A stretch of DNA of 64,000 bases from Patescibacteria group bacterium (GTDB lineage Bacteria; Patescibacteriota; Minisyncoccia; Phycocordibacterales; JAKAEA01). Positions 9,558-49,190 of the stretch are shown one piece after another (positions within the stretch are counted from its first letter, which is position 1; every line of letters starts with the position of its first letter). The notes beneath the pieces were generated by a model. It ran no database searches. It saw only the letters and a program-made list of their open reading frames with translations, and was not told the origin of the DNA. The stretch is taken from contig JAZKCY010000001.1 of the NCBI GenBank assembly GCA_040387855.1, positions 104,396-168,395 on the forward strand, read 5' to 3'. Position numbers and translations under genes: made by a program.

Positions 9558-9607
9558 TAGTTGAGTTTCTTATTAGATGCTATGATTTTACTATTATACA
9601 TAATCAG

Positions 9608-12184
9608 TTGAGAATATCTTTTATGAAAGCATTATTATCCCGCATAGGAATTAGCCTTCTCATATGCGCTTTTGTTGTTGGTCCACTTAATGTTGGGCAA
9701 GCACAAACTGTTGATGTACCAGCTCCCGTAGCTAGCTTTGTCACAATTCCAAGTGCTGTGCTTAGACTTGAATACAATAGTGCACAAATGGATCCTTCAT
9801 TAGTTGCAACTTTTAAAATTATTGTTAACTCAGGATCTCAAGAAAGAAAAGTATATGAGACTGGTTTTGCAGATCAGCTTATATTTATGAAGACAGGTAA
9901 TTGGGTAAATGCAAATTCATATAGTCGAACGGTAACTCCTCCAGCAAATGTTACAAAGACTCAAGACCAGTACGGAAGAACTATCTTTACTATTCCAGCA
10001 AATCAACAAGCAGAGTTTACACAAGTTACAAAATATAATCCGAAGCAGCTTTTTGCGGGAAGATACTATGCGAAGATTGCTAATGTGTATGCGCCAGCAA
10101 GTACTTCAGGTACCGATGACTATTTTTCTGCACCTGTAAATAAATCAAATGAAGTAACTATTGTTGGAGAAGTTTCTCCATACATTGATTTTGTTCATGT
10201 TGGTAACAATGCTGTGTCTATCAACGGTCAGCGTTTTGCTCGATTCGAAAATCAAGTATTAATTGATGGAGTAGTGCTCTACGGAAAACGACCTTCATTA
10301 GGAAATAAAGGAGCAGCTGTTTCATTTAATTATGTAGGAGCAAAGCTTACGCCTGGACGTCATTCTATTGCAATCAATCATCCAGTGACCGGAAGAAGTA
10401 ATACTATGTGGTTTGAAATTCCTGGAACAGTACCTACTAATCCTACAATACCGGGATGTCCTACAGGAGCGATGTATAATTCTCTTACAGGTGCTCCTTG
10501 CGTGCCTTCTACAACAGGTGTAATTACAGTAAGTCTTGATGCAGGTACTCCTTCAATAACAACTCACACAGTACATTCAGTATATGGCGCACAAGGTGTA
10601 GAAATGCAGAAGTTTGCAGCACGAGCTGTAAATGCTGATACAAAATTTATTTCTACAGGTGTTAGCTTCACGGGAGAGATTCCAACTGCTGTGTATCTCT
10701 ATGATGGAAATACTCTTATTGATTCACGATCAGGAGCAGCAAACGTTACATTTAATTTCCCTACATCAAACATTGTAATTGCAAAAGATACAACTCGAGT
10801 ATTCACTATTAAAGCAGATTTTGCTCCTACTACAGCAAATGGAGCTACATCAAAAAGTGTAGTTACGTCAGCACAATATTTAAGTGATACAATCATTACG
10901 ATCCCTACTGCTGGAGTGACTGGAAATGTACAAAACTTTACAAGTTCAACAACTGGATCACAGGCAAATCTTACCTTTGTATCTGGAACTGCTTCAACAT
11001 TAACAAGTATATCAACAGGTGAGACAAGTGCAGTTACAGGTACAATTGCATTTAAAGTAAAGCCTGTAGGAGGATCAGCTGCAATTCCTTCAACATCTGA
11101 TTTTGAATTAAAACTTAATTCTTCAGCATATTCTCCAATCACAATTACAAACAAGACCGTCACTATGACGAGTGCAACTGGAGCTGCAACGGGAAGTATT
11201 CTCGCTGAAGGAAGTGAATACACAATTCAGGTAACTGGTGTAATTCAACCTTTTGCAATCCCTGTGACTGGTATCTCAACCGGATATTTTTCTCTCACAA
11301 GTACAAAGTTTACTGTTGGTGGAACTGTGGTAACTCAAACATCAGGACTCGAAAACTTTAAGACAAATAGTGTAACTGTTGTAAAATCAGGACCAATGCC
11401 AGAATCTTCTGTCACTGTTTTTTCACCAAATGGAGGTGAGAGTATAAATGGCAATACATCATTCGCAATCAAGTTTAAACCTATACCCGGAGTTCAACAC
11501 TTTGTAAATCTTATTGATGAATCAAATTCACCAAGTAATAAGGAGTATGATTTAAGATACTCTAATGGAAATGCTGTCATGGGGGAAACAACAGAACAGC
11601 AAACCTTTGTTGCTATTGTACCTCCTGGTTATAATATTACATCAGGAAATAAATTTAAGATTGAAGTTTGCGCAAATTTCAAATGTGATAAAAGTAATGA
11701 GTATTTTACTTTTACAACATCAAATGTAACTCCAGCACCTACAACTCCTACTATCACAGGTTACAGTTTGATTAATGCTGATACAGATCAAGTAATCGCT
11801 GGGTATGAAACTATCAGCAATGGGGTCACACTAAATCTTGCAACACTTCCTACAAAAAATCTCAACATCCGAGCAAATGTTGCCGGAGGAACTGCAAGTG
11901 TTAAATTCACCACATCAGGTGCACAGTCATCAACCTATACAGAGAGTGGAGCGCCATTTGCTCTAAAAGGCGATACCAATGGTAATTATCTCCCTTGGAC
12001 ACCTATTGCTGGCACATACACTGTTATAGCTACTCCTTACAGCAAAATAAGCGCTCAGGGCACAGCTGGAACCGCGGTAGCACTTACATTTAAGGTTGTA
12101 ACTTCAACTACTACTGCTGCTGACTATAGTTTCAGCGAACAAGTGGCAAATATTGTGAATGCTCTCAATAATTTGTTTAGATAA
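9608..12184 (+). CDS. large secreted/surface protein (signal peptide; Thr/Ser/Val/Gly-rich beta-type repeats; Cys pairs)
   Basis: 858 aa with an N-terminal signal peptide (MKALLSRIGISLLICAFVVGPLNVGQA). Composition resembles an adhesin or S-layer protein. Confidence 0.5.
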   Translation: MRISFMKALLSRIGISLLICAFVVGPLNVGQAQTVDVPAPVASFVTIPSAVLRLEYNSAQMDPSLVATFKIIVNSGSQERKVYETGFADQLIFMKTGNWVNANSYSRTVTPPANVTKTQDQYGRTIFTIPANQQAEFTQVTKYNPKQLFAGRYYAKIANVYAPASTSGTDDYFSAPVNKSNEVTIVGEVSPYIDFVHVGNNAVSINGQRFARFENQVLIDGVVLYGKRPSLGNKGAAVSFNYVGAKLTPGRHSIAINHPVTGRSNTMWFEIPGTVPTNPTIPGCPTGAMYNSLTGAPCVPSTTGVITVSLDAGTPSITTHTVHSVYGAQGVEMQKFAARAVNADTKFISTGVSFTGEIPTAVYLYDGNTLIDSRSGAANVTFNFPTSNIVIAKDTTRVFTIKADFAPTTANGATSKSVVTSAQYLSDTIITIPTAGVTGNVQNFTSSTTGSQANLTFVSGTASTLTSISTGETSAVTGTIAFKVKPVGGSAAIPSTSDFELKLNSSAYSPITITNKTVTMTSATGAATGSILAEGSEYTIQVTGVIQPFAIPVTGISTGYFSLTSTKFTVGGTVVTQTSGLENFKTNSVTVVKSGPMPESSVTVFSPNGGESINGNTSFAIKFKPIPGVQHFVNLIDESNSPSNKEYDLRYSNGNAVMGETTEQQTFVAIVPPGYNITSGNKFKIEVCANFKCDKSNEYFTFTTSNVTPAPTTPTITGYSLINADTDQVIAGYETISNGVTLNLATLPTKNLNIRANVAGGTASVKFTTSGAQSSTYTESGAPFALKGDTNGNYLPWTPIAGTYTVIATPYSKISAQGTAGTAVALTFKVVTSTTTAADYSFSEQVANIVNALNNLFR

Positions 12185-12369: not shown

Positions 12370-13563
12370 ATGGCAGAAGTATTCGATCGCTCAAAACCAC
12401 ACGTTAACGTGGGTACTATCGGACACGTTGACCACGGAAAGACAACTCTTACCGCGGCTATTCTTAACGTGCTCGGTCTTTCAGGACAGACAGTTAAGAT
12501 GAAGAACGTTAATGATATCGACTCAGCGCCTGAAGAAAAGGCACGAGGTATTACTATTGCGCTCTCACACAATGAGTACTCAACAGTAAATCGACATTAC
12601 GCTCACATTGATGCTCCAGGTCACGCCGACTACATCAAGAACATGATTACTGGTGCCGCTCAAATGGACGGTGCTATCCTTGTAGTAGCAGCAACTGACG
12701 GAGTTATGCCACAGACACGAGAACACATTCTTCTTGCTCACCAGGTGGGTGTACCTAAGATTATCGTGTTCCTCAACAAAGTAGACATGGTTGATGACCA
12801 GGATCTTATTGACCTTGTTGAAGAAGAAGTCCGAGATCTTCTTACAAAAAATGATTACGACGGCAAAAATACTCCTATTATCCGAGGTTCAGGCCTTAAG
12901 GCTCTTGAAGCAAAGGATATTAATGATGAATGGGCACAGAAAGTTCTAGAACTTACAAAGACTTTGGATGAATTCATCCCTGTTCCTGTTCGAGACACAG
13001 AAAAGCCTTTCCTTATGCCAGTAGAAGACATCTTCTCTATTGAAGGACGAGGAACTGTGGTTACTGGAAAAATTGAACGAGGAATGATTAAGGTTGGAGA
13101 AGACGTAGAAATCGTTGGACTCAAGCCTACAGCAAAGACAACTGTTACTGGTATCGAAATGTTCAACAAGCAGTTGAATGAAGGTATGGCAGGAGACAAT
13201 GCCGGAATTCTCGTTCGAGGTCTTAAGAAAGAAGACATCACTCGAGGTCAGGTTCTTGCTAAGCCAGGATCTGTAGTTCCTCATACAGACTTCGAAGCAG
13301 AAGTATACATCTTGAAGAAAGAAGAAGGAGGTCGACACACTCCATTCTTTACAGGATACAAGCCACAGTTCTACATCCGAACAACTGACGTTACTGGAGA
13401 AGTAACACTCGCAGAAGGAGTAGAAATGGTTATGCCAGGAGATACAGTTACCTTTAAGGTAAAGCTTGTAGCACCAGTTGCTCTTGAAAACAACACACGA
13501 TTTGCTATCCGAGAAGGAGGAAAGACTGTGGGAGCGGGAGTTGTAACAAAGATCGTAGCATAA
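12370..13563 (+). CDS. tuf: elongation factor Tu
   Basis: [10 protein letters not shown] motif, 397 aa. Confidence 0.95.
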
Positions 13564-15726: not shown

Positions 15727-16578
15727 ATGAAAACATACCGACCAACAACAAAATCACGCCGAAATATGACCTCCATCAACTATGGAGACTATTTAACAGC
15801 GTCAGAACCACAGAAGTCACTTACTCATGGTTTCAAGCGATCAGTAGGACGCAACCATCATGGTAAAGTAACAACTCGACATAAGGGTTCAGGCCACAAG
15901 CGACTCTATCGAGATGTTGATTTCTCATACAACAAGTATGAAATCCCTGCAAAGATTGCAACTATCGAATATGATCCAAACCGAACAGGATTTATTGCAC
16001 TTGCAGTATATGCAGACGGAGAAAAGCGATACATTCTCGCTCCAAAATCAATGCGAGTAGGAGATACTTTCATTGTATCTGAGAAGGCAGATGTAAAGCC
16101 TGGAAACAGACTTCCATTAAGCAAAATCCCTGTAGGAACATTTGTATATAACGTAGAATTAAAGAAGAACGGAGGAGCAAAGATTGCTCGATCAGCAGGA
16201 AACTTCGTAGAAGTGATCGGTCATGATGCAGGATTTGCATTCATCAAAATGCCTTCAAGTGAAGTTCGACGAGTTGTTGATACAGGATTTGCATCAGTAG
16301 GAACCGTATCAAACGATGAAAACCGACTTGTTAATCTTGGAAAAGCGGGACGAAGTCGATGGTTGGGAATTCGACCAACAGTTCGAGGTACTGCCATGAA
16401 CCCAGTAGACCACCCATACGGAGGAGGAGAAGGACGACAGGGACGAGGAACTCGACGAGCAAAGTCTGTATACGGAAAGCCAACAGGAAAGGGACAGAAG
16501 TCACGACGAGCAAAGAAGTACTCAAACGTCTTCATTGTTTCTCGACGAAAAGTTGGAAAGAAGAAGGACAACAAATAA
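15727..16578 (+). CDS. rplB: 50S ribosomal protein L2
   Basis: 283 aa with an intact C-terminus, L2 family. Confidence 0.95.
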   Translation: MKTYRPTTKSRRNMTSINYGDYLTASEPQKSLTHGFKRSVGRNHHGKVTTRHKGSGHKRLYRDVDFSYNKYEIPAKIATIEYDPNRTGFIALAVYADGEKRYILAPKSMRVGDTFIVSEKADVKPGNRLPLSKIPVGTFVYNVELKKNGGAKIARSAGNFVEVIGHDAGFAFIKMPSSEVRRVVDTGFASVGTVSNDENRLVNLGKAGRSRWLGIRPTVRGTAMNPVDHPYGGGEGRQGRGTRRAKSVYGKPTGKGQKSRRAKKYSNVFIVSRRKVGKKKDNK

Positions 16579-16591: not shown

Positions 16592-16620
16592 AATCCCCAC
16601 CATCTGGTTGGGGTTTTTTG
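16592..16620 (+). terminator. rho-independent terminator immediately after rplB
   Basis: CCCCACC-ATCT-GGTTGGGG hairpin followed by TTTTTTG. Confidence 0.65.
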
Positions 16621-16624
16621 TTTG

Positions 16625-16652
16625 TTGACAAAACACAGAAATACTATATAAC
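16625..16652 (+). promoter_or_regulatory. sigma70-like promoter (TTGACA, 16-nt spacer, TATAAC) upstream of the MYG1 gene
   Basis: Hexamers read directly from the sequence. Confidence 0.45.
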
Positions 16653-16706
16653 TACGCACAGAATCCAGCTCGCGTGAGTATGGAAGGGGAGACACATGTT
16701 TAAAAC

Positions 16707-17618
16707 ATGGGAGAACTCGTGAACGACAAGCTTCCGATTCGTTGGTCAGGCGAGAAGCTGGTGGCATGCACTCACAGCGGACGGTTTCATGGTGATGAAA
16801 TCCATGCTGCCGGCGTCTTGGCTGCCCGCGGCATGGTTAACGAGTTTCGGCGGAGCCGAGACCCTGCAGTGCTCGCCACGTGTGATCTGCGTTTCGACGT
16901 GGGCTACATGTACGATTCAGCCACTATGGACTTCGACCACCATCAAGACGGTGGAGCCGGTGTTCGGGACAACGGTGTGCCGTATGCATCGGCCGGGCTT
17001 ATCTGGGCTCACTTCGGCCATGAGTTGTGCAACGACGATGCCGAGGTACATGCAGAGGTCGACAGGATCCTGTTCCAGCCGATCGACGCACGGGATGTGG
17101 GCTACGACAAGCACATCAAGGCTGGCCAGGGGCTCGTCTACGGCATTTCCGACGACATCCGTCGTCGCAACCCGCCGCCGTTTAGTGACGTAAATTCGGA
17201 CGCTGTCTTCTTAGAGGTGGTGGAGGAGGCCAGGCGTCGTATTGTCGCGGAAGTCGCACTCGTGACGACCGATCTCCGGATCATTCCTCCGTATATCGAG
17301 CGAATGCTCGCTGTTGCGGATACGCCGGGGCTGCTCGTGCTCGACATCGCCTACGACTGGCCCAAGGTTATGCAGAAGTACGCCCCGAACATCTCGGTGA
17401 TCGTCTTTCCGAGCGAAGACGAGAGCGGCTGGAGAGTTCAGTCGGTCAACCTGCAGAAGAGACCGTTGCCTCGTTTATGGGCTGGCAAAAACGGCGCGGA
17501 CATGGTGAAAGCCTCGGGTGTGGCAGACGCACAGTTCTGCAACGCTAAGGGTTATCTCGCCAGTGCCCAAAGCATGGAAGGCGCCGTGGCTTTAGCAGAA
17601 ATCGTGCTTCGAATATAG
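16707..17618 (+). CDS. MYG1/UPF0160-family metal-dependent hydrolase (3'-5' exonuclease-type), high GC (about 59%)
   Basis: Contains CTHSGRFHGDE, RSRDP, CDLRFDVG, DHHQ and SAGLIWAHFGH, matching the conserved MYG1 motifs across the full length. Composition is foreign relative to the surrounding ribosomal-protein genes. Confidence 0.85.
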   Translation: MGELVNDKLPIRWSGEKLVACTHSGRFHGDEIHAAGVLAARGMVNEFRRSRDPAVLATCDLRFDVGYMYDSATMDFDHHQDGGAGVRDNGVPYASAGLIWAHFGHELCNDDAEVHAEVDRILFQPIDARDVGYDKHIKAGQGLVYGISDDIRRRNPPPFSDVNSDAVFLEVVEEARRRIVAEVALVTTDLRIIPPYIERMLAVADTPGLLVLDIAYDWPKVMQKYAPNISVIVFPSEDESGWRVQSVNLQKRPLPRLWAGKNGADMVKASGVADAQFCNAKGYLASAQSMEGAVALAEIVLRI

Positions 17619-17619
17619 G

Positions 17620-17655
17620 AGGAGATCGACTCGTCGGTCTTGCTCCTTTTTTTTA
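17620..17655 (+). terminator. rho-independent terminator after the high-GC MYG1 gene
   Basis: GGAGATCGAC...GTCGGTCTTGCTCC imperfect hairpin followed by T8. Confidence 0.5.
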
Positions 17656-17681
17656 TACCTCTACAGTGATACGATATATCT

Positions 17682-18629
17682 ATGTTTACTACTATCTACA
17701 TTCCCACAAGAATTCAAAACGATACTGCATCAGCAATTTTTATATTAAAGAAATATGGCCGAGAAAAATTTCCAGGGATTGAAAACGCAAAGATAGAAAT
17801 TAGATCTGTTATACCTGTAGGTTTTACTGAAGAAGCTTTGGAAAAAGAGGGGATAGTACTTGTTGATATTGGAAAGGGTAAATTTGATCACCATGGCTCA
17901 GAAGTACAAATTACTTCAACCGATCTCGTATGTAAATTCTTGGGTGTTATAGATAATCCAGCATTAGAAAAGCTTCGAAAATATGTGGAGCGATGTGACT
18001 TTTTTGGTAAAGGCATTATTTCAAATGATCCATTAGATAGAGCTTTTGGATTGCCAGGGCTCCTTATAAATTTAAATAAAAAGCATAACTCAGAGCCAAA
18101 TTCTGTGTACCCAATAATTGCCGAACTTTTTGATGCTCACGTTTTAGAAGAAGAACAGCGTACAGTAGGGTTACCAAAAGAAGTTGAAGAAAAAACCACA
18201 GCTGGATTGGTGGATATATTTAGCCTCAAGCATCATGGCAAAAATATTAAGTGCATCTATATTGCTTCAGATAATATCAGCCTTTCAGGATACCTTCGTT
18301 CTCAAATGGGCGGAGCATATGATGTTGCGATTATTCATATGAGCACAGGACATATAAATATTATGACTCGTCCTGCCAAGCGTGTTGATTTACATGCTCT
18401 CATTGCTGTCATACGCCGCTCAGAGCTTATGAAACGTGGTGACGTGAAGCTCTACACCAATGATCTTCTTTCTCAGACAGGCCGCTTTGATAAGGTCCCT
18501 CAGTGGTATTATGATCCTGCTACAAACTCACTTCAAAACGGAGGGATCAATCCAGGGCAAATAGAAAAGACTGTACTCTCTCGAAAAGAAATAATTGAAT
18601 TGGTGAAAGTGGGATTGGGAGATAGATAA
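17682..18629 (+). CDS. divergent MYG1-like paralog (low GC); the N-terminal His/Asp metal motif is not conserved
   Basis: VLVDIGKGKFDHHG aligns to the DVG..DHHQ region of the upstream MYG1, but the THxGxFHxDE block reads TRIQNDTASA. Confidence 0.5.
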   Translation: MFTTIYIPTRIQNDTASAIFILKKYGREKFPGIENAKIEIRSVIPVGFTEEALEKEGIVLVDIGKGKFDHHGSEVQITSTDLVCKFLGVIDNPALEKLRKYVERCDFFGKGIISNDPLDRAFGLPGLLINLNKKHNSEPNSVYPIIAELFDAHVLEEEQRTVGLPKEVEEKTTAGLVDIFSLKHHGKNIKCIYIASDNISLSGYLRSQMGGAYDVAIIHMSTGHINIMTRPAKRVDLHALIAVIRRSELMKRGDVKLYTNDLLSQTGRFDKVPQWYYDPATNSLQNGGINPGQIEKTVLSRKEIIELVKVGLGDR

Positions 18630-18637
18630 TATTTTTT

Positions 18638-19087
18638 ATGATTATAGAACCAGATCAGCACTATTATGAAAATGGGAAATATGTGTGGACTCCTGAAAAA
18701 AGGGCTGCTGCGTGGGAAAAATGTTTTACTGTTTTAGAACAAGAAGCGACATCTGGAAAATTTAAAAAGATAGTGATGCTTATTGGCATTCCAGGAGCAG
18801 GGAAGAGTACCTACACTAAAGCTCATGATAGTGAGTCTACTATTATATTTGATGGAGTCTTTGTAAATCCGAAAGAACGGGAACGAGCTATTACTATTGC
18901 ACATTCAACAGGCCTTCCGATTGAAGGGGTGTGGCTTAATACACCTTTAGAAATATGTTTGGAAAGAAATGCTCAAAGAACTGATGATAGAAAGGTACGG
19001 GAGGATCATGTAACTATGATGTATGAGAATTTACAGAAAAATAAGCCTCGTTTAGAAGAGGGATATACGACATTTATAGAGCAATAA
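18638..19087 (+). CDS. small P-loop NTPase/kinase (AAA_33 / polynucleotide-kinase-like)
   Basis: 149 aa with Walker A GIPGAGKST, a downstream D/R-rich lid, and a size and architecture resembling Pnk/zeta-type kinase domains. Confidence 0.55.
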   Translation: MIIEPDQHYYENGKYVWTPEKRAAAWEKCFTVLEQEATSGKFKKIVMLIGIPGAGKSTYTKAHDSESTIIFDGVFVNPKERERAITIAHSTGLPIEGVWLNTPLEICLERNAQRTDDRKVREDHVTMMYENLQKNKPRLEEGYTTFIEQ

Positions 19088-19093
19088 AGACAC

Positions 19094-19121
19094 TTGACAA
19101 TATATATAGCTGTGCTATAAT
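19094..19121 (+). promoter_or_regulatory. consensus sigma70 promoter (TTGACA, 16-nt spacer, TATAAT) for the 19172 gene
   Basis: Perfect hexamers read directly from the sequence. Confidence 0.55.
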
Positions 19122-19171
19122 ATACACCGTACCAGTTCCGTCAGTTTTCACCTACTAGAAAGGGTCATTCC

Positions 19172-19855
19172 ATGACCGCTTCGTCCACCCCCAGCGTCGC
19201 TTCCGCCAAGATCCTGATGTCCAGCCTCCGCACCGTGAACCGGTTCGTGCTGAACTTCCAGGTCGAGGGCCTGCGCCCGCCGAGCAACTTCCCGCCGATC
19301 CGCGAGTGCGCCCCCCTCACCACGGGGACCAAGGCGCCCAAGCAGGTCGAGCGCGGCGAGAAGCTCGTCGAGCGGACCCGCGAGGTCTGCTCGCTCGATG
19401 CCCCGAGCATCATCAGCGCCTGCTTTGACGCCGGCCTGATCTACTGCAAGATGCTCATGCTCCCCAAGGGTCCGCCCACGGTCAGCATGCGCTTCAAGCG
19501 GCAGACGGAGCAGACCGACGCGGTCGCCCCGAACGACGCCAACTACCTCACGACGGAGATCGAGACGATCTACGGTCCGTGGATGGTGATGCTCCAGGGC
19601 TCGCTCCGGCTCGACTGCAACTTCGACCCCTACGGGCTCACCGTGGAGGAGGAGGCCGAGTACCTGCGGAAGCGCTACCGGAACGCCGGCACGCACAACG
19701 CGACGGAGATCGAGCGCAAGGTCAAGCAAGAGGCCACGGGCACGCCGTACCTCCTGACCGGGACGCACTACGTCGAGGCCCTGCGGCTCACCCCGCCGGC
19801 CTACCACAGGCTGTTCGCCCACGAGGGTGCGCTCCTGCTCGACGGCGAGCTCTAG
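19172..19855 (+). CDS. hypothetical protein, very high GC (about 65%, strongly GC3-biased), unknown function
   Basis: 227 aa with normal amino-acid composition and GC-ending codons. The overlapping minus-strand ORF 19148..19969 is judged to be a high-GC antisense artefact. Confidence 0.6.
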   Translation: MTASSTPSVASAKILMSSLRTVNRFVLNFQVEGLRPPSNFPPIRECAPLTTGTKAPKQVERGEKLVERTREVCSLDAPSIISACFDAGLIYCKMLMLPKGPPTVSMRFKRQTEQTDAVAPNDANYLTTEIETIYGPWMVMLQGSLRLDCNFDPYGLTVEEEAEYLRKRYRNAGTHNATEIERKVKQEATGTPYLLTGTHYVEALRLTPPAYHRLFAHEGALLLDGEL

Positions 19856-19911
19856 GTCGATGTTCGACCCAGCGTTTTGATGAACAATACCCCAAACTAG
19901 AAAGGTGAACA

Positions 19912-19940
19912 GGCCGATGCATAAACTGCATCGGCCTTTC
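19912..19940 (+). terminator. rho-independent terminator after the 19172 gene
   Basis: GGCCGATGCA-TAAAC-TGCATCGGCC perfect 10-bp stem followed by TTT. Confidence 0.6.
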
Positions 19941-19953
19941 ACTTGGGAAAGAT

Positions 19954-19980
19954 TTGACATGCTCCACACTTTCGTATAAT
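19954..19980 (+). promoter_or_regulatory. consensus sigma70 promoter (TTGACA, 15-nt spacer, TATAAT) re-initiating the rpsS-rplV-rpsC... operon
   Basis: Hexamers read directly from the sequence. Confidence 0.55.
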
Positions 19981-20031
19981 ATGTGACTCACGCTCTGAAC
20001 TAGAGCTCTTTTGTTTCATATATATCTATCC

Positions 20032-28206: not shown

Positions 28207-28977
28207 ATGATTACTATTAAGTCTCAAAAAGAAATAGAAATTTTACGAGAGGGAGGTAAGCGCCTTGCCTCTATTCTTGCTGAAGTTGTAAAAGAAGTAA
28301 AGGCTGGTGTATCAACAGATTATTTAAATACTTTTGCTGAGAATCTTATTAAAAAAGGTGGAGATAAATCTGCATTTTTAAACTACAAACCAAAAGGTGC
28401 CGACCGACCATTTCCTGCAAGTTTGTGTGTGTCAGTAAATGACGAAGTTGTGCACGGTATTCCAAATGAAAAGCCTAAAGTTTTGGAGGAGGGGGATGTA
28501 GTGAGCCTTGATCTTGGCTTGATTCATAAAAAGATGTTTACCGATCATGCAGTAACGGTTGCTGTAGGTAAACCTTCAAAAGATGTACAAAAGCTAATTA
28601 CAATTACTAAGGAGGGCCTCATGATGGGCATCAAAGCCGCAAAACCGGGCAAGACGACAGGGGATATTGGTTTTGCTATTGAGTCACATGCCAACCCTCA
28701 CAAACTCGGTATCGTAGAAGAATTGGCCGGACACGGTGTTGGTTATTCTGTACATGAAGAACCATTTGTTCCAAATTATGGACGCCCTGGAGAAGGAGTG
28801 CTTTTGAAACCAGGCATGGTGTTGGCTATTGAACCTATGTTTACGTTGGGAACAGCAGATATTGATTTCGACGATGATGGATATACAGTGCGAACATCTG
28901 ATGGATCTATGGCAGCGCACTTTGAACATACTATTGTGATTACTGAAGATGGAGCTGAGATACTCACAACTTTGTAG
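28207..28977 (+). CDS. map: methionine aminopeptidase type I
   Basis: Pita-bread fold with conserved D/H/E metal ligands. Confidence 0.9.
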   Translation: MITIKSQKEIEILREGGKRLASILAEVVKEVKAGVSTDYLNTFAENLIKKGGDKSAFLNYKPKGADRPFPASLCVSVNDEVVHGIPNEKPKVLEEGDVVSLDLGLIHKKMFTDHAVTVAVGKPSKDVQKLITITKEGLMMGIKAAKPGKTTGDIGFAIESHANPHKLGIVEELAGHGVGYSVHEEPFVPNYGRPGEGVLLKPGMVLAIEPMFTLGTADIDFDDDGYTVRTSDGSMAAHFEHTIVITEDGAEILTTL

Positions 28978-29019
28978 TTTTTAAAATTTAAAAAAATGAA
29001 GCTGTGATATAATTTTCCT

Positions 29020-31797
29020 ATGGAAAATCCAAATCTACTTCAACCAGAACAAAAATTTTCTTCACCTGAAGAAGAGTTAGCATATTTAAGAAATCAGGTA
29101 GCTGTGCGAGAGAGGGAACTCATGGCACGAGGTGCAGAAGTTACACGTGATGAAGTTATTTCAGATAAAGTAAAAGATTACAGCTATGCTCCCACACAAG
29201 CTGTGTTACACGAGACCCACAAAGCACCCGATACTTATATAGAAGACTTAGCCCTCAATCTCGCTCCTGAGACTCATGATTATAAAATTATAGAACTTGT
29301 AAAAATCCTTAAAGAAAAGGGGATTAAAAATGCTATGGATGTGGTGGCTGAAATGAATGATCCGCACGTTGAGGATGATTTTCATAGATTCTTAGTACAG
29401 TATGTTAAAAAAGGTTTAGTAATAGATGGATTGAAGCCGAAATCTGAATTGTTTAGAGAGCTTAATATGACACTCTATGAAGTGTCTCTTCCTGACTCAA
29501 AAGATCAGGAAAATAAAAGCATTAAAGAGCTTGTTTCATCGATGGAGCAGTTTTACTCAGGTATGATGGCTATTGAAGACCGTGATGATTCAGGCAGATA
29601 TTTTTCTATTGAAATTGCCAACCCAAATCATAGTGAAGAATTTATTGTATATGTATCGGTGCCTGATACAAAAAAGAATTTGTTTGAAAAGCAAATCCTT
29701 TCACTGTTTCCATTGGCAAAGATCAAAGAAATTCCCGATGACTACAATATCTTTAATGAAGCAGGAGCAACGGTAGGATCAGTTGCAGAATTTGATTCGC
29801 ATGCTGCATTACCTATCAAAACATACGAAACATTTGATCATGATCCAATGAACGTAGTGTTGAATACGTTTTCTAAAATTAAAAAAGACGGCGAAGGTGC
29901 CGCAATTCAGTTTATAATTCGACCGCCTGTTGCAGATGAATATGTAAAGCAATACAAAATGACCCTTGAGCAAGTACAAAAGGGGACAAAGCTTAAGGAT
30001 GCACTTCCAAAATCTATAGCTAAAGAAGTGTTTGGCAGTTTTAAAGATGTGTTCTTCGGAAGTAAAAAAGATGAAGACAAAGATACATCAAAAACTGTTG
30101 ATGAAAATGCAGTAGAGCAATTAAAGAATAAAATTTCTAGTCCAATTGCTGAAGTGAATATTCGTATTATTGCATCAGCACCTACTATTTCTGACGCAGA
30201 TAAAATAATTTCGGACATTGAATCAAGTTTCCGTCAGGTGGAAAATACGCAAGGGAATAAACTTATCTTTAAGCGACAAAGTGGTAAAAAACTTATTGCA
30301 ATGGCAAAAGATTTTTCATACCGAGCTTTTACTTCAGACCATTTACTACCTATAAACTTTAAGGAACTTACAACACTTTTTCACTTTCCAGGATCAACTA
30401 TCAAATCATCTCCACAACTTAAGCAAAGTATGGCAGCATCAGCTCCTGCACCTATGGATATGCCTCAAGATGGAACATTACTTGGTGTAAATAGATTCCG
30501 AAATGTTGAGACTAAAGTATTCATGACTAAAGAAGATCGATTGCGACATATGTATGTGATCGGACAAACTGGAACTGGTAAATCAACTATCCTCAAGAAT
30601 ATGATTGCTCAAGATATTCTCCAGGGAGAGGGAGTATGTATGATTGACCCTCACGGCGTAGATATTTTGGATATTCTTTCTATTATTCCTCCAGAACGAT
30701 ATGAAGATATTATTTACTTTGATCCAAGTGATACAAAGCGACCAATGTCTCTCAACATGCTTGAGTATGATAGACGTTATCCAGAACAGAAGACATTCGT
30801 GGTCAACGAAATGATGTCTATTTTTAACAAGCTTTTCGATATGAAAACATCGGGAGGTCCAATGTTTGAACAGTACTTCCGAAATGCAACAATGCTTGTG
30901 ATTGAAGACCCAGATACTGGTTCTACTCTTTTGGACGTATCTCGTGTACTTGCCGATAAAGCATATCGACAGCTGAAAATTGCGCGATGTAAAAATCCTA
31001 TTGTTGTGCAATTCTGGAAAGAGATTGCCGAGAAGGCTGGAGGAGAAGCATCCCTTGGTAATATTGTGCCGTATATTACCTCTAAATTCGACGTATTCCT
31101 CTCAAACGACATCATGAGACCAATTGTGTCTCAGGAACAATCAAGCTTCAATTTTAGAGAGCTTATGGATACTAAGAAGATTCTCTTAGTGAACCTTGCC
31201 AAGGGACGACTTGGAGATATTAATGCCAATCTCATTGGTCTTATTATTGTGGGGAAAATCTTGATGGCCGCACTTTCACGAGCTGATTCACTTCATCTAA
31301 ATCCAGCTCCGTTTTATCTTTATATCGACGAGTTCCAAAACGTAACTACCGATTCTATTTCAACTATTCTTTCTGAAGCTCGAAAGTACAAGCTTTCACT
31401 CAATGTTGCTCACCAATTTATCGCCCAACTAGATGAAGGTATTCGAGACTCCGTGTTTGGAAACGTAGGAAATATGGCGGTATATCGAGTGGGTGCAGAT
31501 GATGCAGAATTTCTTGAAAAACAATTTGCTCCTGAATTTACTGCAAAAGATATTATGAATATTGAGAACTACCATGCATATCTCAAGATACTTGTTCGCG
31601 GAAAGCCGGTAAAACCTTTTGATATTAAGGCACAAGCATCTCCACAAGGTAAGAAAGATCATCTTGAAAAACTCAAAGAACTTTCAGGTTTGAAATATGG
31701 CCGTGATCGAGCAGATGTAGAGGCTGACATTATGCTTAAGTATAAAAAGCCAGATCCTGTGCCTCCAGTTGCACCAGCAGCAGCAACAAAGTTATAA
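29020..31797 (+). CDS. VirB4/TraG-superfamily (FtsK/HerA-like, AAA_10/DUF87) type-IV-secretion-type ATPase with a large soluble N-terminal domain and no TM segments
   Basis: 925 aa with Walker A VIGQTGTGKST, Walker B-like LYIDEFQNV, and the ARKYKLSLNVAHQ (RK...[AS]xQ) motif typical of VirB4/TraC/T4CP ATPases. Confidence 0.55.
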   Translation: MENPNLLQPEQKFSSPEEELAYLRNQVAVRERELMARGAEVTRDEVISDKVKDYSYAPTQAVLHETHKAPDTYIEDLALNLAPETHDYKIIELVKILKEKGIKNAMDVVAEMNDPHVEDDFHRFLVQYVKKGLVIDGLKPKSELFRELNMTLYEVSLPDSKDQENKSIKELVSSMEQFYSGMMAIEDRDDSGRYFSIEIANPNHSEEFIVYVSVPDTKKNLFEKQILSLFPLAKIKEIPDDYNIFNEAGATVGSVAEFDSHAALPIKTYETFDHDPMNVVLNTFSKIKKDGEGAAIQFIIRPPVADEYVKQYKMTLEQVQKGTKLKDALPKSIAKEVFGSFKDVFFGSKKDEDKDTSKTVDENAVEQLKNKISSPIAEVNIRIIASAPTISDADKIISDIESSFRQVENTQGNKLIFKRQSGKKLIAMAKDFSYRAFTSDHLLPINFKELTTLFHFPGSTIKSSPQLKQSMAASAPAPMDMPQDGTLLGVNRFRNVETKVFMTKEDRLRHMYVIGQTGTGKSTILKNMIAQDILQGEGVCMIDPHGVDILDILSIIPPERYEDIIYFDPSDTKRPMSLNMLEYDRRYPEQKTFVVNEMMSIFNKLFDMKTSGGPMFEQYFRNATMLVIEDPDTGSTLLDVSRVLADKAYRQLKIARCKNPIVVQFWKEIAEKAGGEASLGNIVPYITSKFDVFLSNDIMRPIVSQEQSSFNFRELMDTKKILLVNLAKGRLGDINANLIGLIIVGKILMAALSRADSLHLNPAPFYLYIDEFQNVTTDSISTILSEARKYKLSLNVAHQFIAQLDEGIRDSVFGNVGNMAVYRVGADDAEFLEKQFAPEFTAKDIMNIENYHAYLKILVRGKPVKPFDIKAQASPQGKKDHLEKLKELSGLKYGRDRADVEADIMLKYKKPDPVPPVAPAAATKL

Positions 31798-31804: not shown

Positions 31805-32410
31805 ATGTCACATCCAAAATACGAACGAACACTTGTGGTTATTAAACCAGATGGTATCCAGCGATCATTGATAGGGGAGATTATTAAGCGATACGAACAA
31901 ATTGGACTTAAATTAGTAGCCATGAAAATGATGATGGCTACGCCTGAGCATATTGAAGCTCATTATACCCTTGATCCAGAATGGCGACGTATTACTGGAG
32001 AGAAAACAATTAAAGGCTATAAAGATAAAGGTCTCACTCCACCAACTGAAGATCCATTGGAAGTGACCGGTGCACTTTTGGGAAAGCTTAAGACTTATAT
32101 GACAGCAGGGCCACTTGTAGCCATGGTGTGGCAAGGCGCTCATGCGGTAAAAATAGTGAGAAAGATAACCGGTGGGACTGAACCACTAACCTCAGATGTA
32201 GGAACAATTCGAGGGGATTATGTGTTGGATTCATATCAAATGACTGATGCTGATGGCCGATCTATTAGAAATTTAATTCATGCATCAGGAACTCCAAAAG
32301 AAGCAGAAGAAGAAATCAAACACTGGTTTAATCCTGATGAAATCATGGATTATAAGCTTGTACAGGAACAAATTTTGTACGACATAAAGATGGGTGGAGT
32401 TTTAGAATAG
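31805..32410 (+). CDS. ndk: nucleoside diphosphate kinase (long form with insertion)
   Basis: TLVVIKPDG and the NxxHxSD region. Start placed at the internal ATG. Confidence 0.8.
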   Translation: MSHPKYERTLVVIKPDGIQRSLIGEIIKRYEQIGLKLVAMKMMMATPEHIEAHYTLDPEWRRITGEKTIKGYKDKGLTPPTEDPLEVTGALLGKLKTYMTAGPLVAMVWQGAHAVKIVRKITGGTEPLTSDVGTIRGDYVLDSYQMTDADGRSIRNLIHASGTPKEAEEEIKHWFNPDEIMDYKLVQEQILYDIKMGGVLE

Positions 32411-45174: not shown

Positions 45175-46323
45175 ATGAAAATAGCTATTAATATCACCCG
45201 TGAACAAATGGGAGGTATTACCACAACAAACCTTAGTCTTCTCAATCAACTTCATGGGTCAAATGATGTGTCTTTTGTTGGAATAGAATTAAATAGCAAC
45301 AGAAGCTTTAAATCAGCATCATTATTTAGACACTTGAGTCCTGAATGGTTTTCTCATCATGTAATAAGCGTGTGCGATTATCCCCTTGGAGTCATGATAA
45401 AGCGATCTAAGAATCTCGCTGATCTAGAAAAGAGATTTGCTCCCATAATCTTACTCATCAGAAAAATTTTACAAAAAGAACGACCTGACGTTGTTCTTTT
45501 AAATGGCACATATTACATGCCCTGGCTCATATCTATCGCATGTAAAAAAGAGAAGATCCCTGTAGTGCTTTGGTATGCGGGTGTACTTTCTCAAGAGACC
45601 TCTCATTTTGCGGTAAAAGAAAAGAACTTGATGTGGAATATGGAACGAGCTGTTGTACACAATGCAACCAAAGTAATTTTCCCATCAACTATTTGTAAAG
45701 AAAAAGTACAAAGATCTGTGGTGAATTCTACTAAAGTACGAAATGCATTGGTGATTCCAAATCCAATTTCTCCATTGTTTACTCAGCACAAATCACCAGA
45801 ATCTTCTGTTGAAAATAGAATTGCTTTTGTTGGCCGATTTGCTCAAATCAAAAATCCTGCAGGTTTTATTAAAATACATAAAGCGCTTTTAAAATGTAAG
45901 TGGAAGCATGAGGCAACCATCGTAACAAACGTACAATCTATTGATCGTAGAAAAATCCCAAAGACTATCACTGTTTTGCCAAGTATGACTCCTAGTGAAT
46001 TGAAGATATTCTATGCAACTCAAGGGGTAATTATATGCCCGTCATTATTTGAAACATTTGGTAATGTCCCAATCGAAGCAGCATGTATTGGTATTCCCGT
46101 TCTTGTACACAATAATATGGGATGCGCTGAAGTGCTCAATGAGTCTAATTTGAGAAAATGTGTTATTGATTTTAATGATGAAGCTGCCGTTATTAAAAGA
46201 GTAAAAGAATTGTGTGGCCAGCAGATTCTCATACGACAGATAAATAATTTAAGAAAAAGAGTAGACGTAAAATATATCTCGCAAGAAATAATTTTGGTAA
46301 TTAAGAGTGTTATAGAGAAATAA
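45175..46323 (+). CDS. glycosyltransferase family 4 (GT-B, group 1)
   Basis: C-terminal ETFGNVPIEAACIGIPVLV matches the E-x7-E GT1/GT4 motif. Confidence 0.75.
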   Translation: MKIAINITREQMGGITTTNLSLLNQLHGSNDVSFVGIELNSNRSFKSASLFRHLSPEWFSHHVISVCDYPLGVMIKRSKNLADLEKRFAPIILLIRKILQKERPDVVLLNGTYYMPWLISIACKKEKIPVVLWYAGVLSQETSHFAVKEKNLMWNMERAVVHNATKVIFPSTICKEKVQRSVVNSTKVRNALVIPNPISPLFTQHKSPESSVENRIAFVGRFAQIKNPAGFIKIHKALLKCKWKHEATIVTNVQSIDRRKIPKTITVLPSMTPSELKIFYATQGVIICPSLFETFGNVPIEAACIGIPVLVHNNMGCAEVLNESNLRKCVIDFNDEAAVIKRVKELCGQQILIRQINNLRKRVDVKYISQEIILVIKSVIEK

Positions 46324-46324
46324 A

Positions 46325-46345
46325 AAACCGCGAACGAGTCGCGGA
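46325..46345. terminator. bidirectional terminator shared by convergent genes
   Basis: CCGCGA-ACGAG-TCGCGG hairpin with an A-run on the + side and a T-run on the - side. Confidence 0.5.
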
Positions 46346-47641
46346 TTAGAAGAACTTGAGCATGAAGGTGATGATGATGAACAATACACCCAGGATGCTC
46401 ACGCTCCAGATGATGTAGCCAAAGAACGAAGGCATCGAGATCCCGCGCCGTTTGGCAATGGCGAAGATCATAAAGTTTGGCGCATTGCCAATGTAGGTGA
46501 GTGCCCCCATATACACGGCGCCAAGACTGATGGCCTTCACGAGGTCTGGTGATTGTGCTGTCAGGTGGGGAAGCGAGGTCGAACCCGTTGTCGATTCGGC
46601 CATCGACATGAATACCAGGAACGTCGGCGCATTGTCGAGCACCGACGAGAACACACCGGTTGCCCAGAAGTACTGTGCTGGCTCGCTCACTCCAAGCGAC
46701 GAACCTGAATGCTGCAGCAGCTGCAGTGCTGGGACCATTGTCATGAAGATCCCGGCGAATACGACTGCCACCTCCACTATCGGTCCGAACTCGAAGTTGT
46801 TTTTTTGTCGCGCCTCTTTTGCAATTGGCGCGAGCTTCGAGTACACGAGTGATATGACGATGGTGATCACGAAGATCACTTCACGCCACGGGCTCGCTAC
46901 CGCAATGACACTGCCTACGATCACCATCATGAGCACTGCATTGCCAAGGCCGATGAGCATGAGTGGCTCCACATGCTCTTTGTCTTGAGCAATATCTTCG
47001 TTGGACTCCTTGTTGTAAAAGTACTTGTCGATCACGAGGTACACAGCGAGCAACACGATGCCGCTCACCAACCAGTAGACCCAAAGATTTCGGGCAAACC
47101 AGAAGAATTCGATTCCTCGCAAGTAGCCGAGGAAGAGCGGTGGGTCACCGAGGGGAGTGAGTAACCCTCCGAGATTGCTTACCAAAAAGATGAAAAACAC
47201 GACAGTATGCCGCACGTGTTTTCGTTCTTGGTTGCTTCGCAATAGTGGATAGATCATGAGGATCGAGGCACCCATTGTGCCCACAACACTCGCCATGATG
47301 TATCCGCTCGCAAGCATCATCGCATTGCGGCCCGGCGTTGCTCGCAGATCACCCTTGATGTGGATGCCTGAGGCAACGATGAACAGCGCAGCGAGGAGCA
47401 GTATGAACTGCACAAATTCGATCCCCGCATGCACGATCAAGTTTCGATCGTGCTGTGCCACGTAGATGGCAACTGGTAAGCCGAGCGTGAGGATCACGCA
47501 CAATTTCACCCAGTTTTTTTCCCACGCATGCTTGGTAAAGCTCACGAGGGGAAGGACTGCGATGAGGCCGAGCAGCACCGCAAACGGCACTACCGACCAC
47601 AGTGTTGGAATCCACGAACTTGCTGCAAGTGATGAAATCAC
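46346..47641 (-). CDS. ArsB/NhaD-superfamily permease (putative ion/anion transporter), elevated GC (about 54%)
   Basis: LTPLGDPPLFLGY matches the TPxGDPPN-type motif, with multi-TM topology. A GTG start sits behind a GAGAGGG Shine-Dalgarno. Confidence 0.6.
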   Translation of the reverse strand: MISSLAASSWIPTLWSVVPFAVLLGLIAVLPLVSFTKHAWEKNWVKLCVILTLGLPVAIYVAQHDRNLIVHAGIEFVQFILLLAALFIVASGIHIKGDLRATPGRNAMMLASGYIMASVVGTMGASILMIYPLLRSNQERKHVRHTVVFFIFLVSNLGGLLTPLGDPPLFLGYLRGIEFFWFARNLWVYWLVSGIVLLAVYLVIDKYFYNKESNEDIAQDKEHVEPLMLIGLGNAVLMMVIVGSVIAVASPWREVIFVITIVISLVYSKLAPIAKEARQKNNFEFGPIVEVAVVFAGIFMTMVPALQLLQHSGSSLGVSEPAQYFWATGVFSSVLDNAPTFLVFMSMAESTTGSTSLPHLTAQSPDLVKAISLGAVYMGALTYIGNAPNFMIFAIAKRRGISMPSFFGYIIWSVSILGVLFIIITFMLKFF

Positions 47642-47777
47642 GACACCCTCTCTGTAAGAACAATTGAATCCGTTCAATCGACGGTCAGACTTTTAAATAC
47701 CACATTATATATATAAAGTCAATATACTAGCAAATAAAAAACCATGAAGCGCGATGGTTTGTCGCGCACTCATGGTG

Positions 47778-48173
47778 TTAAATACTTAGCCCGATTTCTA
47801 TCCGCAAAAGCTCTGAACACCTCTGCATGTCTTCAATCGGTAAGACATGTGCTTCCTTGAAATCTCGATGTCGATCTCTTACTTCTGGGATATCAAACAC
47901 CGACTTCTTGATCATCCGGAAGCAGGCAGGATCATTTTTGATGATTGCCCAGTCTTCACCGGAACCGATGATGATTCCGCATACAAAAGCGATCCACATG
48001 TCCCACGCCTTGAACGAGTGTAGCTCGTCGTTGGGAACTTCCGGTTTCCACGTGGGCAGTGGGCCTGGGTTAAACTTTGCCTGTCCGCGTTGGAAGTAAA
48101 TCATCGAGGTCGTGGGATTGTTTCTTCCATACACCCACAGACACTCAACCGCTGGCAGTTTCACAGACATCAA
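47778..48173 (-). CDS. hypothetical protein, moderately elevated GC
   Basis: 131 aa ORF followed by an ACCAT...ATGGT hairpin and T-run. Confidence 0.4.
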   Translation of the reverse strand: MMSVKLPAVECLWVYGRNNPTTSMIYFQRGQAKFNPGPLPTWKPEVPNDELHSFKAWDMWIAFVCGIIIGSGEDWAIIKNDPACFRMIKKSVFDIPEVRDRHRDFKEAHVLPIEDMQRCSELLRIEIGLSI

Positions 48174-48245
48174 TACCTCCTCGGTTTTGTACAGTAAAGG
48201 TACCGTAGATGATAGTACTAAAATCCAATAAAAAGGCCAGTCGAT

Positions 48246-48449
48246 TTATTTAACTAGATATTTGCCGGCAACACTGAGTGCAAATGAAGGTAAAATAATA
48301 CACACAGTAGTTTGAAGTAATCTAATAAGCACAATGTTGAAGACGGTGCTTCCATCACCATCAGGAGGAGTTGTTGCAATTAGAAGGATGCCAATAATAC
48401 CGAAAGCTATAGATGCGTAGATAAATATTTTAGTAGCAATAGGTTGCAT
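48246..48449 (-). CDS. small membrane protein
   Basis: 67 aa, 2 TM. Confidence 0.35.
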   Translation of the reverse strand: MQPIATKIFIYASIAFGIIGILLIATTPPDGDGSTVFNIVLIRLLQTTVCIILPSFALSVAGKYLVK

Positions 48450-48460
48450 AGAAGTAGTAA

Positions 48461-48664
48461 TTATTTTTTATATTCCAAAACATCACCTGGCTGGCAGTCT
48501 AATGCTTTGCAGATTGCATCAAGAGTTGTAAGTCGTACTGCTTTTGCTTTGCCGTTTTTCAAGATAGAAAGATTGGCCATAGTAATGCCCACTTTTTCTG
48601 TGAGTTCAGTAACGCTCATTTTTCGCTTTGCAAGCATAACGTCAATGTTGATAATAATTGCCAT
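48461..48664 (-). CDS. small XRE-family HTH transcriptional regulator (YozG-like)
   Basis: MSVTELTEKVGITMANLSILKNGKAKAVRLTTLDAICKALDCQPGD. Confidence 0.8.
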   Translation of the reverse strand: MAIIINIDVMLAKRKMSVTELTEKVGITMANLSILKNGKAKAVRLTTLDAICKALDCQPGDVLEYKK

Positions 48665-48671
48665 AAATAGT

Positions 48672-49190
48672 TTATACAGTTAATTCGTTTTCCTTTTTAA
48701 TATCAACAACATTCTGTAAGAGTTTTTGTAGTACACCTGCAAAGGTGGCAATGATAAGTGGTGAACATACAAACGTCATTGCAAAAAGAATGAGTCCAGG
48801 TGCATCATCTCCATCAGCAATAAAAAATGCGAGCGGCATAATAAATACATAACACAAGGTCATACTACCTGCGCAGTACTTTATTGTTTTTAGAGCATTC
48901 ACTGATTCCTGAGAGAACGCAGTGTTCTTATCAATGTATGTTAAAAGCTTGAGACCTTGATAGAGTGCGATGAAAAAGGGAATAGCACTGAGATATAGTC
49001 CTACAAATGCGAAAGGTTGCGACTCTTTAATTCCTGGCCACTCAAGTGCCATTCCTCTATATATGTGAGGGAATGCAAAAATGCAGAGGGCGAGTACCGC
49101 GAGTCCAAATACGATAATGACTGCTTTTAAAAATAATGTTGATCCTTTATTCATAAAACTATGATTAGTTGATGATAAAGAGCTTAGCAT
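48672..49190 (-). CDS. DUF2975-like membrane protein (the usual partner of YozG-like HTH)
   Basis: 172 aa, 4 TM, with the conserved gene pairing. Confidence 0.5.
   Translation of the reverse strand: MLSSLSSTNHSFMNKGSTLFLKAVIIVFGLAVLALCIFAFPHIYRGMALEWPGIKESQPFAFVGLYLSAIPFFIALYQGLKLLTYIDKNTAFSQESVNALKTIKYCAGSMTLCYVFIMPLAFFIADGDDAPGLILFAMTFVCSPLIIATFAGVLQKLLQNVVDIKKENELTV

Follow-up and report, generated by a model that had tools for sequence, protein, structure and literature searches.

What is an ATPase of the kind found in type IV secretion systems (T4SS) doing in a housekeeping operon, with no secretion gene beside it? The question is raised by a 64,000-nucleotide stretch of contig JAZKCY010000001.1 from a Patescibacteria group bacterium (assembly GCA_040387855.1, positions 104,396 to 168,395 of the forward strand), referred to below as the window. 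Its plus strand carries an open reading frame (ORF) for 925 amino acids (aa), from the ATG at 29020 to the stop codon at 31795–31797, in the gene order L15, SecY, Adk, Map, the ATPase, Ndk. The product is identical to NCBI entry MES2436527.1 ('DUF87 domain-containing protein'), encoded on a 981,549-bp Patescibacteria contig of a metagenome-assembled genome (MAG), and is called by that accession here. The original prediction, made from the sequence of the window, described it as an orphan VirB4/TraG-like ATPase without transmembrane (TM) segments. From the analysis presented below, the gene is very probably a vertically inherited core gene of Paceibacteria, encoding a soluble, TM-less motor of the FtsK/HerA superfamily with a C-terminal half of the type IV coupling protein (T4CP) lineage and a VirB4-type N-domain.

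Sequence Profiles and Predicted Structure

The three motifs named in the original prediction, GQTGTGKST (aa 515), IDEFQNV (aa 769) and ARKYKLSLNVAHQ (aa 787), are all present. Residue invariance was judged on an alignment of 31 homologs; beyond the positions given in Table 1, the whole Walker B segment YLYIDEF (aa 766–772) is invariant. The role of the ARKYKLSLNVAHQ Arg/Gln motif is presumably the one typical of the FtsK/VirB4/VirD4 group. Judged from its sequence, MES2436527.1 is with high confidence an active ATPase.

The ATPase half matches profiles of coupling proteins. In Pfam, TraG-D_C matches aa 764–832 with 25.0 bits (cutoff 22), and TrwB_AAD_bind remains just under its cutoff (20.2 versus 20.5 bits). 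FtsK_SpoIIIE matches nothing but the P-loop and, with 21.3 bits, stays below its cutoff of 24, and the match to the DUF87/HerA central domain (25.5 bits) is limited to the 39 residues around the P-loop (aa 508–546). The top ranks in NCBIfam are held by T4CP families, among them SXT_TraD (4e-12) and the VirD4-like CD1115 (PcfC; 5e-11 over aa 496–820). The VirB4 families of NCBIfam reach 1e-4 to 1e-5 only, far under their curated cutoffs; TIGR00929 (20 bits versus 643) and NF045975 (23 bits versus 590) match at the P-loop only, and the protein has no Pfam match to CagE_TrbE_VirB or AAA_10. A sequence search of the PDB returned only TrwB, around the P-loop. Alignment of the family profile by hhalign gave a weak match to PcfC of pCF10 (E 0.008) and nothing for PrgJ, the VirB4 of pCF10 (probability 0.3), both comparisons having little power with a single-sequence template. 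The decisive link to the T4CP family is provided by the ortholog KKR53198.1, which is ~61% identical to MES2436527.1 over 98% of the length and is listed in Table S3 of a survey of Patescibacteria genomes (Quinonero-Coronel et al. 2025, Microb Genom; PMC12102498) as a T4CP, t4cp1, with 86% coverage and VirB4 proximity 'No'. The orphan t4cp1 homologues of that survey are of the same family as MES2436527.1. Membership of VirB4 by sequence was ruled out, there being no usable profile match. An FtsK/SpoIIIE identity was likewise ruled out by a score under the Pfam cutoff, the lack of a TM segment and the lack of any Pfam match to an FtsK-gamma-type DNA-recognition domain.

The N-domain corresponds to Pfam family DUF8128 (PF26449), a precomputed match carried by the identical protein and by all 120 listed homologs. 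Searched by sequence, it found nothing in the PDB and nothing in plasmids (tblastn); its relatives were detected only by a purpose-built hidden Markov model (HMM) and by fold comparison. The AlphaFold2 (AF2) model of the whole protein has a predicted local distance difference test (pLDDT) score of 68.5, and in Foldseek it is colinear with TrwK/VirB4 of R388 (E 9e-9), with TcpA (E 0.011) and HerA (E 0.03) far behind. On this predicted model, DUF8128 is a VirB4-type N-domain. A Kyte–Doolittle scan found no 19-mer over the TM-like threshold in aa 1–480, and the N-terminal half is therefore soluble, as had been proposed for a TM-less T4SS-type ATPase; the sole 19-mer above the threshold in the protein (aa 734–752) is part of the ATPase core, a short way ahead of Walker B.

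The protein thus comprises three modules, namely a helical extension (aa 1–140), a VirB4-like N-domain and a T4CP-like motor with an all-alpha insertion (Table 1). The label 'VirB4/TraG-like' is apt, with the VirB4 fold in the N-domain and TraG/VirD4-type profiles in the ATPase half, and the build could be a surviving intermediate between VirB4 and VirD4. The extension carries the conserved motifs PEEHD and DPHxEDDFHRF, with P83, E84, H86, D87, H116, D119, D120, F121 and R123 invariant, and is missing from 804–837-aa variants as well as from plasmid and phage relatives. The all-alpha insertion is the most conserved segment of the protein (77% column identity). The C-terminal tail has the consensus LKELSYLKYGxDRAxVEAEIMxKY; the disorder at its end was assigned from the AF2 secondary structure and low pLDDT.

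Table 1. Coordinates of the ATPase gene, its predicted modules and motifs, and the adjacent genes in the window
Feature	Residues (aa)	Position in window	Strand	Description and basis
Whole gene	1-925	29020..31797	+	TM-less two-domain ATPase, 925 aa; ORF and translation
Helical N-terminal extension	1-140	29020..29439	+	AF2 helices 16-131; only in long Paceibacteria form
Alpha/beta N-domain, Pfam DUF8128 (PF26449)	141-470	29440..30429	+	Predicted VirB4 N-terminal-domain fold
FtsK/HerA-superfamily P-loop motor, T4CP (VirD4/TraG) type	471-875	30430..31644	+	Pfam, NCBIfam and CONJScan profile matches
Walker A, GQTGTGKST	515-523	30562..30588	+	G515-K521 invariant in 31 homologs
All-alpha insertion between Walker A and Walker B	586-720	30775..31179	+	AF2: eight predicted helices, 590-718
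Walker B region, IDEFQNV	769-775	31324..31344	+	D770 and E771 invariant in 31 homologs
Arg/Gln motif after Walker B, ARKYKLSLNVAHQ	787-799	31378..31416	+	A787, R788, K789, Y790, H798 and Q799 invariant
C-terminal tail	876-925	31645..31794	+	One conserved helix (~aa 879-893), then disordered Pro/Ala-rich end
map (methionine aminopeptidase)		28207..28977	+	Upstream neighbour, 42-nt gap to the ATPase gene; Pfam Peptidase_M24 2e-45
ndk (nucleoside diphosphate kinase)		31806..32410	+	Downstream neighbour, 8-nt gap; Pfam NDK 1e-37

Conservation of the Family

With >3,900 homologs scored in a protein search, the ORF is clearly no chance reading frame. The 120 top-ranking homologs are ~860–970 aa long and 59–72% identical over near full length, with the exception of one fragment of 86% coverage, and those with an organism name are all labelled Patescibacteria/Parcubacteria or plain 'bacterium'. 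In 25 loci sharing the synteny, the median identity to the proteins of the window is 63% for Ndk, 60% for SecY, 57% for the ATPase, 57% for Map, 56% for L15 and 42% for Adk, so that the conservation of the ATPase is comparable to that of SecY and Map. It is kept full length, with invariant catalytic motifs, in >80 species, and the GC content of the gene is that of its flanks. Such conservation marks a core gene on which purifying selection is strong, and no decaying insertion.

It is noted that many MAGs titled 'uncultured Candidatus Saccharibacteria bacterium' (binchicken/TPA; e.g. loci L005, L018 and L019) carry orthologs of 55–69% identity, several of them with the Paceibacteria-type order SecY-Adk-Map-ATPase-Ndk. 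These labels look generic and should not be taken as class Saccharimonadia. One Nomurabacteria MAG, assembly CALRBL01, has two full-length copies of the long form on separate contigs (L026 and L029; 61% and 57% identity by tblastn), which fits the ~two T4CP homologues per genome in the literature. Shorter DUF8128 paralogs of 804 and 823 aa, 39–44% identical and without the extension of aa 1–140, were found in loci L088 (4933–14582) and L090 (4236–8008). The neighbours in L088 are an FtsQ-like POTRA protein, a 597-aa protein with 8 TM segments, small proteins with 2–4 TM segments and a 532-aa protein; the neighbour in L090 is a 1033-aa protein. These were considered as hidden T4SS parts and rejected, as they have no Pfam or NCBIfam match, are not shared between the two loci and have no homolog in the window.

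Genomic Context

The order secY-adk-map, ATPase, ndk is as described in the original prediction, which took the position after map as fixed. In a sample of 80 species-representative genomes, the gene is flanked on each side by 3.5 kb or more of sequence in 41. Map upstream together with Ndk downstream occurs in 18 of these 41, Ndk alone in 4 and neither in 19, so the position holds in roughly half of species. Of the 51 loci whose downstream sequence is long enough, 26 show tight linkage to ndk. On three long contigs, Map is followed by 0–3 small variable ORFs, the ATPase and Ndk, and in some cases then by DUF2238, RNase J and L20. In the loci without Map and Ndk, PBP2 and a Mur ligase recur upstream and YqeY, RmuC, L21, RecR and DnaB downstream; some loci of the family also have ftsW or an FtsQ-like POTRA gene no more than a few kb away. 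The context groups follow the sequence clusters, and lineage-specific relocation of one ortholog is therefore more likely. An ancient paralog split behind the two contexts was set aside on the same ground, the one assembly with two copies notwithstanding. Placement in a housekeeping operon, combined with housekeeping-level conservation, bears out the housekeeping-adjacent character that had been suggested for the gene.

Pfam was run on nearly all window ORFs of at least 100 aa outside the ribosomal-protein cluster. No T4SS, pilin or relaxase family was matched among the ORFs scanned, which extend ~29–32 kb either side of the gene, in agreement with the earlier claim that no other T4SS parts are nearby. 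The scans of window ORFs also gave no integrase near the gene, and no NurA, Sir2 or other mad gene. As predicted, no alpha-operon gene follows map in the window. The genes identified by Pfam include ComEC (92–1612), EF-G, an RNase J-like gene, infC, rplT, a two-component system, FtsH, SmpB/tmRNA and RecG.

At the gene borders, a terminator scan found no plus-strand terminator-like site between map, the ATPase gene and ndk. The true ndk start, read from the sequence, is the ATG at 31806 (MSHPKYERTLVVIKPDG), 8 nt past the ATPase stop codon; a mechanical ORF list puts it at the TTG at 31769, overlapping the ATPase gene. A TGnTATAAT-like extended -10 motif (TGATATAAT, 29005–29013) ends 6 nt ahead of the ATPase ATG, which has no Shine-Dalgarno sequence ahead of it. 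The motif may be an internal promoter giving a leaderless transcript; a promoter scan left it out because it has no -35 match.

Relatives Outside the Candidate Phyla Radiation

The strongest profile match in any library is the phage family phrog_5156 (E 1e-87, aa 149–905). Phage homologs occur in 45 records, 41 of which are Bacillus phages. The proteins of vB_BceS-M2 (720 aa) and D6E (ORF23, 752 aa) are TM-less and have both domains, and SPO1-like phages have the ATPase part only. No close relative of the form found in the candidate phyla radiation (CPR) was present among IMG/VR viral contigs. On plasmids, the best match of the ATPase half is a 708-aa Bradyrhizobium protein (34% identity over 417 aa) with an unrelated N-terminus, and a further relative is a 395-aa solo ATPase in Sulfitobacter. 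The Bradyrhizobium gene (locus L085, 7074–9200; plasmid p131_1 of Bradyrhizobium sp. 131) is flanked by CHAT-domain and TPR proteins, a setting that resembles NTP-dependent conflict systems (Kaur et al. 2020).

A TM-less relative of 869 aa is encoded on a Bacillus plasmid, where its neighbours are a gene of the replication-relaxation family and one for conjugal transfer. The family name Replic_Relax denotes the MOB_C relaxases, and pGIAK1 has been described with a similar set of genes. The N-domain HMM, built from Parcubacteria members only, matches aa 50–297 of this 869-aa protein with 54.9 bits; as a control, 200 shuffled sequences (40 for each of five test proteins) were run and 0 scored. 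We hold with high confidence that the Paceibacteria gene is ultimately of common ancestry with mobile-element proteins of monoderm bacteria.

Comparison with Known Systems

With the T4CPs VirD4, TrwB, TraG and PcfC, MES2436527.1 shares the P-loop motor, Walker A and B and the predicted all-alpha insertion, and it matches TraG-D_C, TrwB_AAD_bind and T4SS-DNA_transf, with PcfC (CD1115) as the best NCBIfam domain match. It differs from them in having no N-terminal TM anchor, a VirB4-type domain at the N-terminus instead, scores far under the family cutoffs, and no relaxase or T4SS neighbour. Compared to VirB4 (TrwK of R388; PDB 7o42, 8rtd), it matches neither PrgJ nor the VirB4 profiles significantly in sequence and does not lie beside VirB3, TrsD or VirB6, and Paceibacteria genomes encode a separate, genuine VirB4. 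The homologs of Bacillaceae plasmids (e.g. USK36540.1, Bacillus sp. F19) and of phages (phrog_5156; vB_BceS-M2 WKV22496.1; D6E ORF23) share the DUF8128-like N-domain, the ATPase core and the lack of TM segments; they lack the extension of aa 1–140, are ~21–24% identical over the aligned stretch and reside on mobile elements. TraJ of pIP501 (PMC12857230) is likewise a coupling protein without its own membrane anchor and reaches the membrane via its partner TraI. The likeness to TraJ is drawn from its published description, and no TraI-like small membrane protein is conserved beside the ATPase in the loci examined.

Orphan T4CP homologues away from virB4 were already known (PMC12102498), and the N-domain was already catalogued as a DUF; the survey does not describe their domains, structure or synteny. 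New are the VirB4-type fold of DUF8128, the TM-less chimeric architecture, the housekeeping-level conservation, the operon placement in about half of the lineages and the build shared with Bacillaceae plasmid and phage proteins. We found no usable literature on DUF8128, on DUF87 in Patescibacteria or on FtsK in CPR/Parcubacteria.

Possible Functions of the ATPase

MES2436527.1 may be the substrate-feeding coupling motor of a chromosomal T4SS encoded elsewhere, a reading that we rank first while giving it somewhat less than even confidence. Like other superfamily members, the protein would assemble as an ATP-driven hexameric ring. Having no membrane helices of its own, it would be recruited to the membrane by its VirB4-like N-domain, with docking modelled on the N-domain of VirB4, which binds VirB3 and the inner-membrane complex. 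It would feed substrate to the monoderm-type chromosomal T4SS of Paceibacteria, whose cluster has no T4CP of its own, and the highly conserved all-alpha domain may be where a conserved substrate or partner is recognised. Transcription together with map and ndk, as part of the ribosomal-protein/secY operon, would make its expression constitutive.

According to Table S3 of PMC12102498, Paceibacteria genomes with orthologs also hold VirB3-TrsD-VirB4(-VirB2) clusters elsewhere, without an adjacent T4CP. The description 'orphan' is thus accurate for the locus and not necessarily for the genome. The coupling motor is favoured because of these clusters; because T4CP genes often lie far from virB4, only 148 of the 5,713 VirD4-like T4CP homologues found in 2,918 of 3,035 Patescibacteria genomes being near virB4 (PMC12102498); and because a VirB4-type N-domain is a plausible stand-in for a TM anchor, with TraJ/TraI of pIP501 as precedent.

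A number of observations weigh against this reading. T4SS genes are absent from the window and from ~90 related loci. The NCBIfam T4CP families score 42–46 bits versus cutoffs of 250–650, so that all curated T4CP equivalog cutoffs are missed widely, and the AF2 model is of low confidence at aa 770–839. Among 651 plasmid matches of the ATPase half, 456 are on plasmids typed as non-mobilizable, and the closest relatives (33–34% identity) are on such plasmids, in non-T4SS contexts. The homologs of vB_BceS-M2 and D6E lie in early regions with replication, recombination or partition genes and no T4SS. The survey (PMC12102498) reports VirB4 in 2,417 of the 3,035 genomes, fewer than the 2,918 with T4CP homologues, and ~two T4CP homologues per genome, for which its authors state that exaptation cannot be excluded. 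It also reports that in S. epibionticum the T4SS is essential and the t4cp homologue is not, and that most Patescibacteria have no relaxases, which leaves the canonical T4CP task with no obvious substrate.

Several of these points speak for a T4SS-independent, domesticated DNA translocase, that is, a plasmid or phage motor fixed in the Paceibacteria chromosome and now pumping or remodelling DNA in a housekeeping role, e.g. in segregation, in FtsK-like dimer resolution at division or in recombination. We consider this a real possibility, nearly as likely as the coupling motor. It is favoured by the T4SS-free setting of the two-domain, TM-less phage homologs, by the predominance of non-mobilizable plasmids, by the greater frequency of T4CP homologues than of VirB4, by the S. 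epibionticum homologue being non-essential for epibiotic growth and by the scarcity of relaxases. Conservation equal to that of SecY and Map points the same way, as do the contexts other than map, with PBP2/Mur ligase, RmuC, RecR and DnaB, and the nearby FtsQ-like POTRA gene or ftsW of some loci. In a small sample, three Paceibacteria genomes have t4cp1 matches only, and 2 of 3 ABY1 genomes also have a match to t4cp2, a profile that we take to be TcpA/FtsK-like. However, the protein has no recognisable DNA-binding domain such as FtsK-gamma, its neighbour associations are weak and generally with housekeeping genes, and a VirB4-type N-domain is otherwise known from secretion machines. The specific proposal that in Paceibacteria a motor from a mobile element became a core DNA translocase with a housekeeping role, free of any T4SS and e.g. 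replacing or supplementing FtsK in chromosome segregation or resolution, is conceivable and on balance rather unlikely.

A divergent second VirB4, serving as an ATPase for T4SS assembly or pilus biogenesis, is improbable. VirB4 proteins commonly lack TM helices, and the soluble N-domain of ~400 aa followed by an ATPase, together with VirB4/TrwK as the best structural matches, would agree with this assignment. However, the matches to VirB4 profiles are very weak, CagE_TrbE_VirB and AAA_10 are missing, hhalign to PrgJ gave nothing and no VirB3 is adjacent; moreover, the VirB4 profile of the survey finds ~one VirB4 per genome, in T4SS clusters, and the family of MES2436527.1 is labelled T4CP there (PMC12102498).

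Less probable again is a cytoplasmic DNA-uptake motor working with ComEC, possibly feeding nucleotide salvage via Adk and Ndk. A T4CP-type motor could in principle translocate DNA, ndk is linked in about half of the loci, ComEC is encoded in the window and CPR bacteria lack nucleotide synthesis (PMC10633639). The original prediction had called ComEC nearby; it lies 27 kb away, which is not nearby in the operon sense, and linkage of ComEC to the ATPase was found in no locus examined, leaving the proposed connection to DNA uptake without support from synteny. S. epibionticum, the only Patescibacterium studied by genetics, requires comEC for transformation and grows without it (PMC10633639), and adk, map and ndk are neighbours of a generic housekeeping kind.

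A HerA/NurA-type repair helicase or a defence ATPase (HerA-type or MADS mad8-type) is very improbable and largely refuted. The DUF87 score of 25.5 bits, a PADLOC mad8 match (1e-12, aa 509–854) and the CHAT/TPR conflict-type genes around the Bradyrhizobium relative could be quoted in its favour. The HerA matches, in PADLOC as in Pfam, are confined to the ~39 residues at the P-loop (aa 508–546), so that the profile check raised in the original prediction gave no assignment to the HerA/NurA family; there is no HAS-barrel, the N-domain is VirB4-like, and Foldseek ranks HerA (E 0.03) well behind VirB4 (9e-9). A HerA/NurA identity was ruled out on the P-loop-only matches and the lack of a HAS barrel and of NurA. 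The MADS defence system was ruled out as well, the mad8 match standing without other mad genes or Sir2 nearby and among map, ndk and further housekeeping neighbours, in a core gene of conserved synteny.

The least probable alternative, a mobile-element passenger or remnant that integrated and has no host function, was suggested by the plasmid and phage relatives and ruled out by GC content like that of the flanks, a position inside the ribosomal/secY operon without integrase or relaxase nearby, full length and invariant motifs in >80 species, SecY-like conservation and the lack of close IMG/VR relatives.

Other Features of the Window

Several further observations concern other parts of the window. 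The ComEC protein (92–1612) consists of Competence and DUF4131 only, without the usual C-terminal metallo-beta-lactamase (MBL) domain; a separate MBL-fold gene (2917–3783) lies 1.3 kb downstream, past an opposite-strand Fe/Mn superoxide dismutase. Between fusA (6510–8660) and a tuf-like ORF (12370–13563), positions 8724–12184 hold two genes, a minus-strand DUF1402-like ORF and an ORF of 858 aa that has a hydrophobic segment at its N-terminus and matches no Pfam family.

Inside the ribosomal-protein cluster, between an rplB-like ORF (15727–16578) and the ORFs from 20011, a stretch of ~3.4 kb (16600–20000) has a GC content of 0.49 versus ~0.39–0.41 in its flanks. It encodes a MYG1/UPF0160-like protein (16707–17618), an ORF without Pfam match (17682–18629), an AAA_33/zeta-toxin-like kinase (18638–19087) and one more, unassigned ORF, and is probably of foreign origin, inserted into an operon that is normally compact. 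A second GC-rich island (46000–53000, GC 0.43–0.48) carries, all on the minus strand, genes for a CitMHS_2 transporter, a DUF2975 protein, a fatty-acid desaturase and an alpha/beta hydrolase. The desaturase is unusual for a CPR genome, because these bacteria have no lipid synthesis.

Implications

Patescibacteria account for much of bacterial diversity. Where genetics has been done, in one species, their T4SS is essential, and 'orphan T4CP' genes are abundant in the group. If the ordinary reading is true, MES2436527.1 would be merely the remotely encoded coupling protein of a known system. The protein offers hypotheses that can be tested, namely docking on VirB3/TrsD/VirB4 or action as a T4SS-independent DNA pump, and it may connect the VirB4 and VirD4 branches of the T4SS ATPases structurally.

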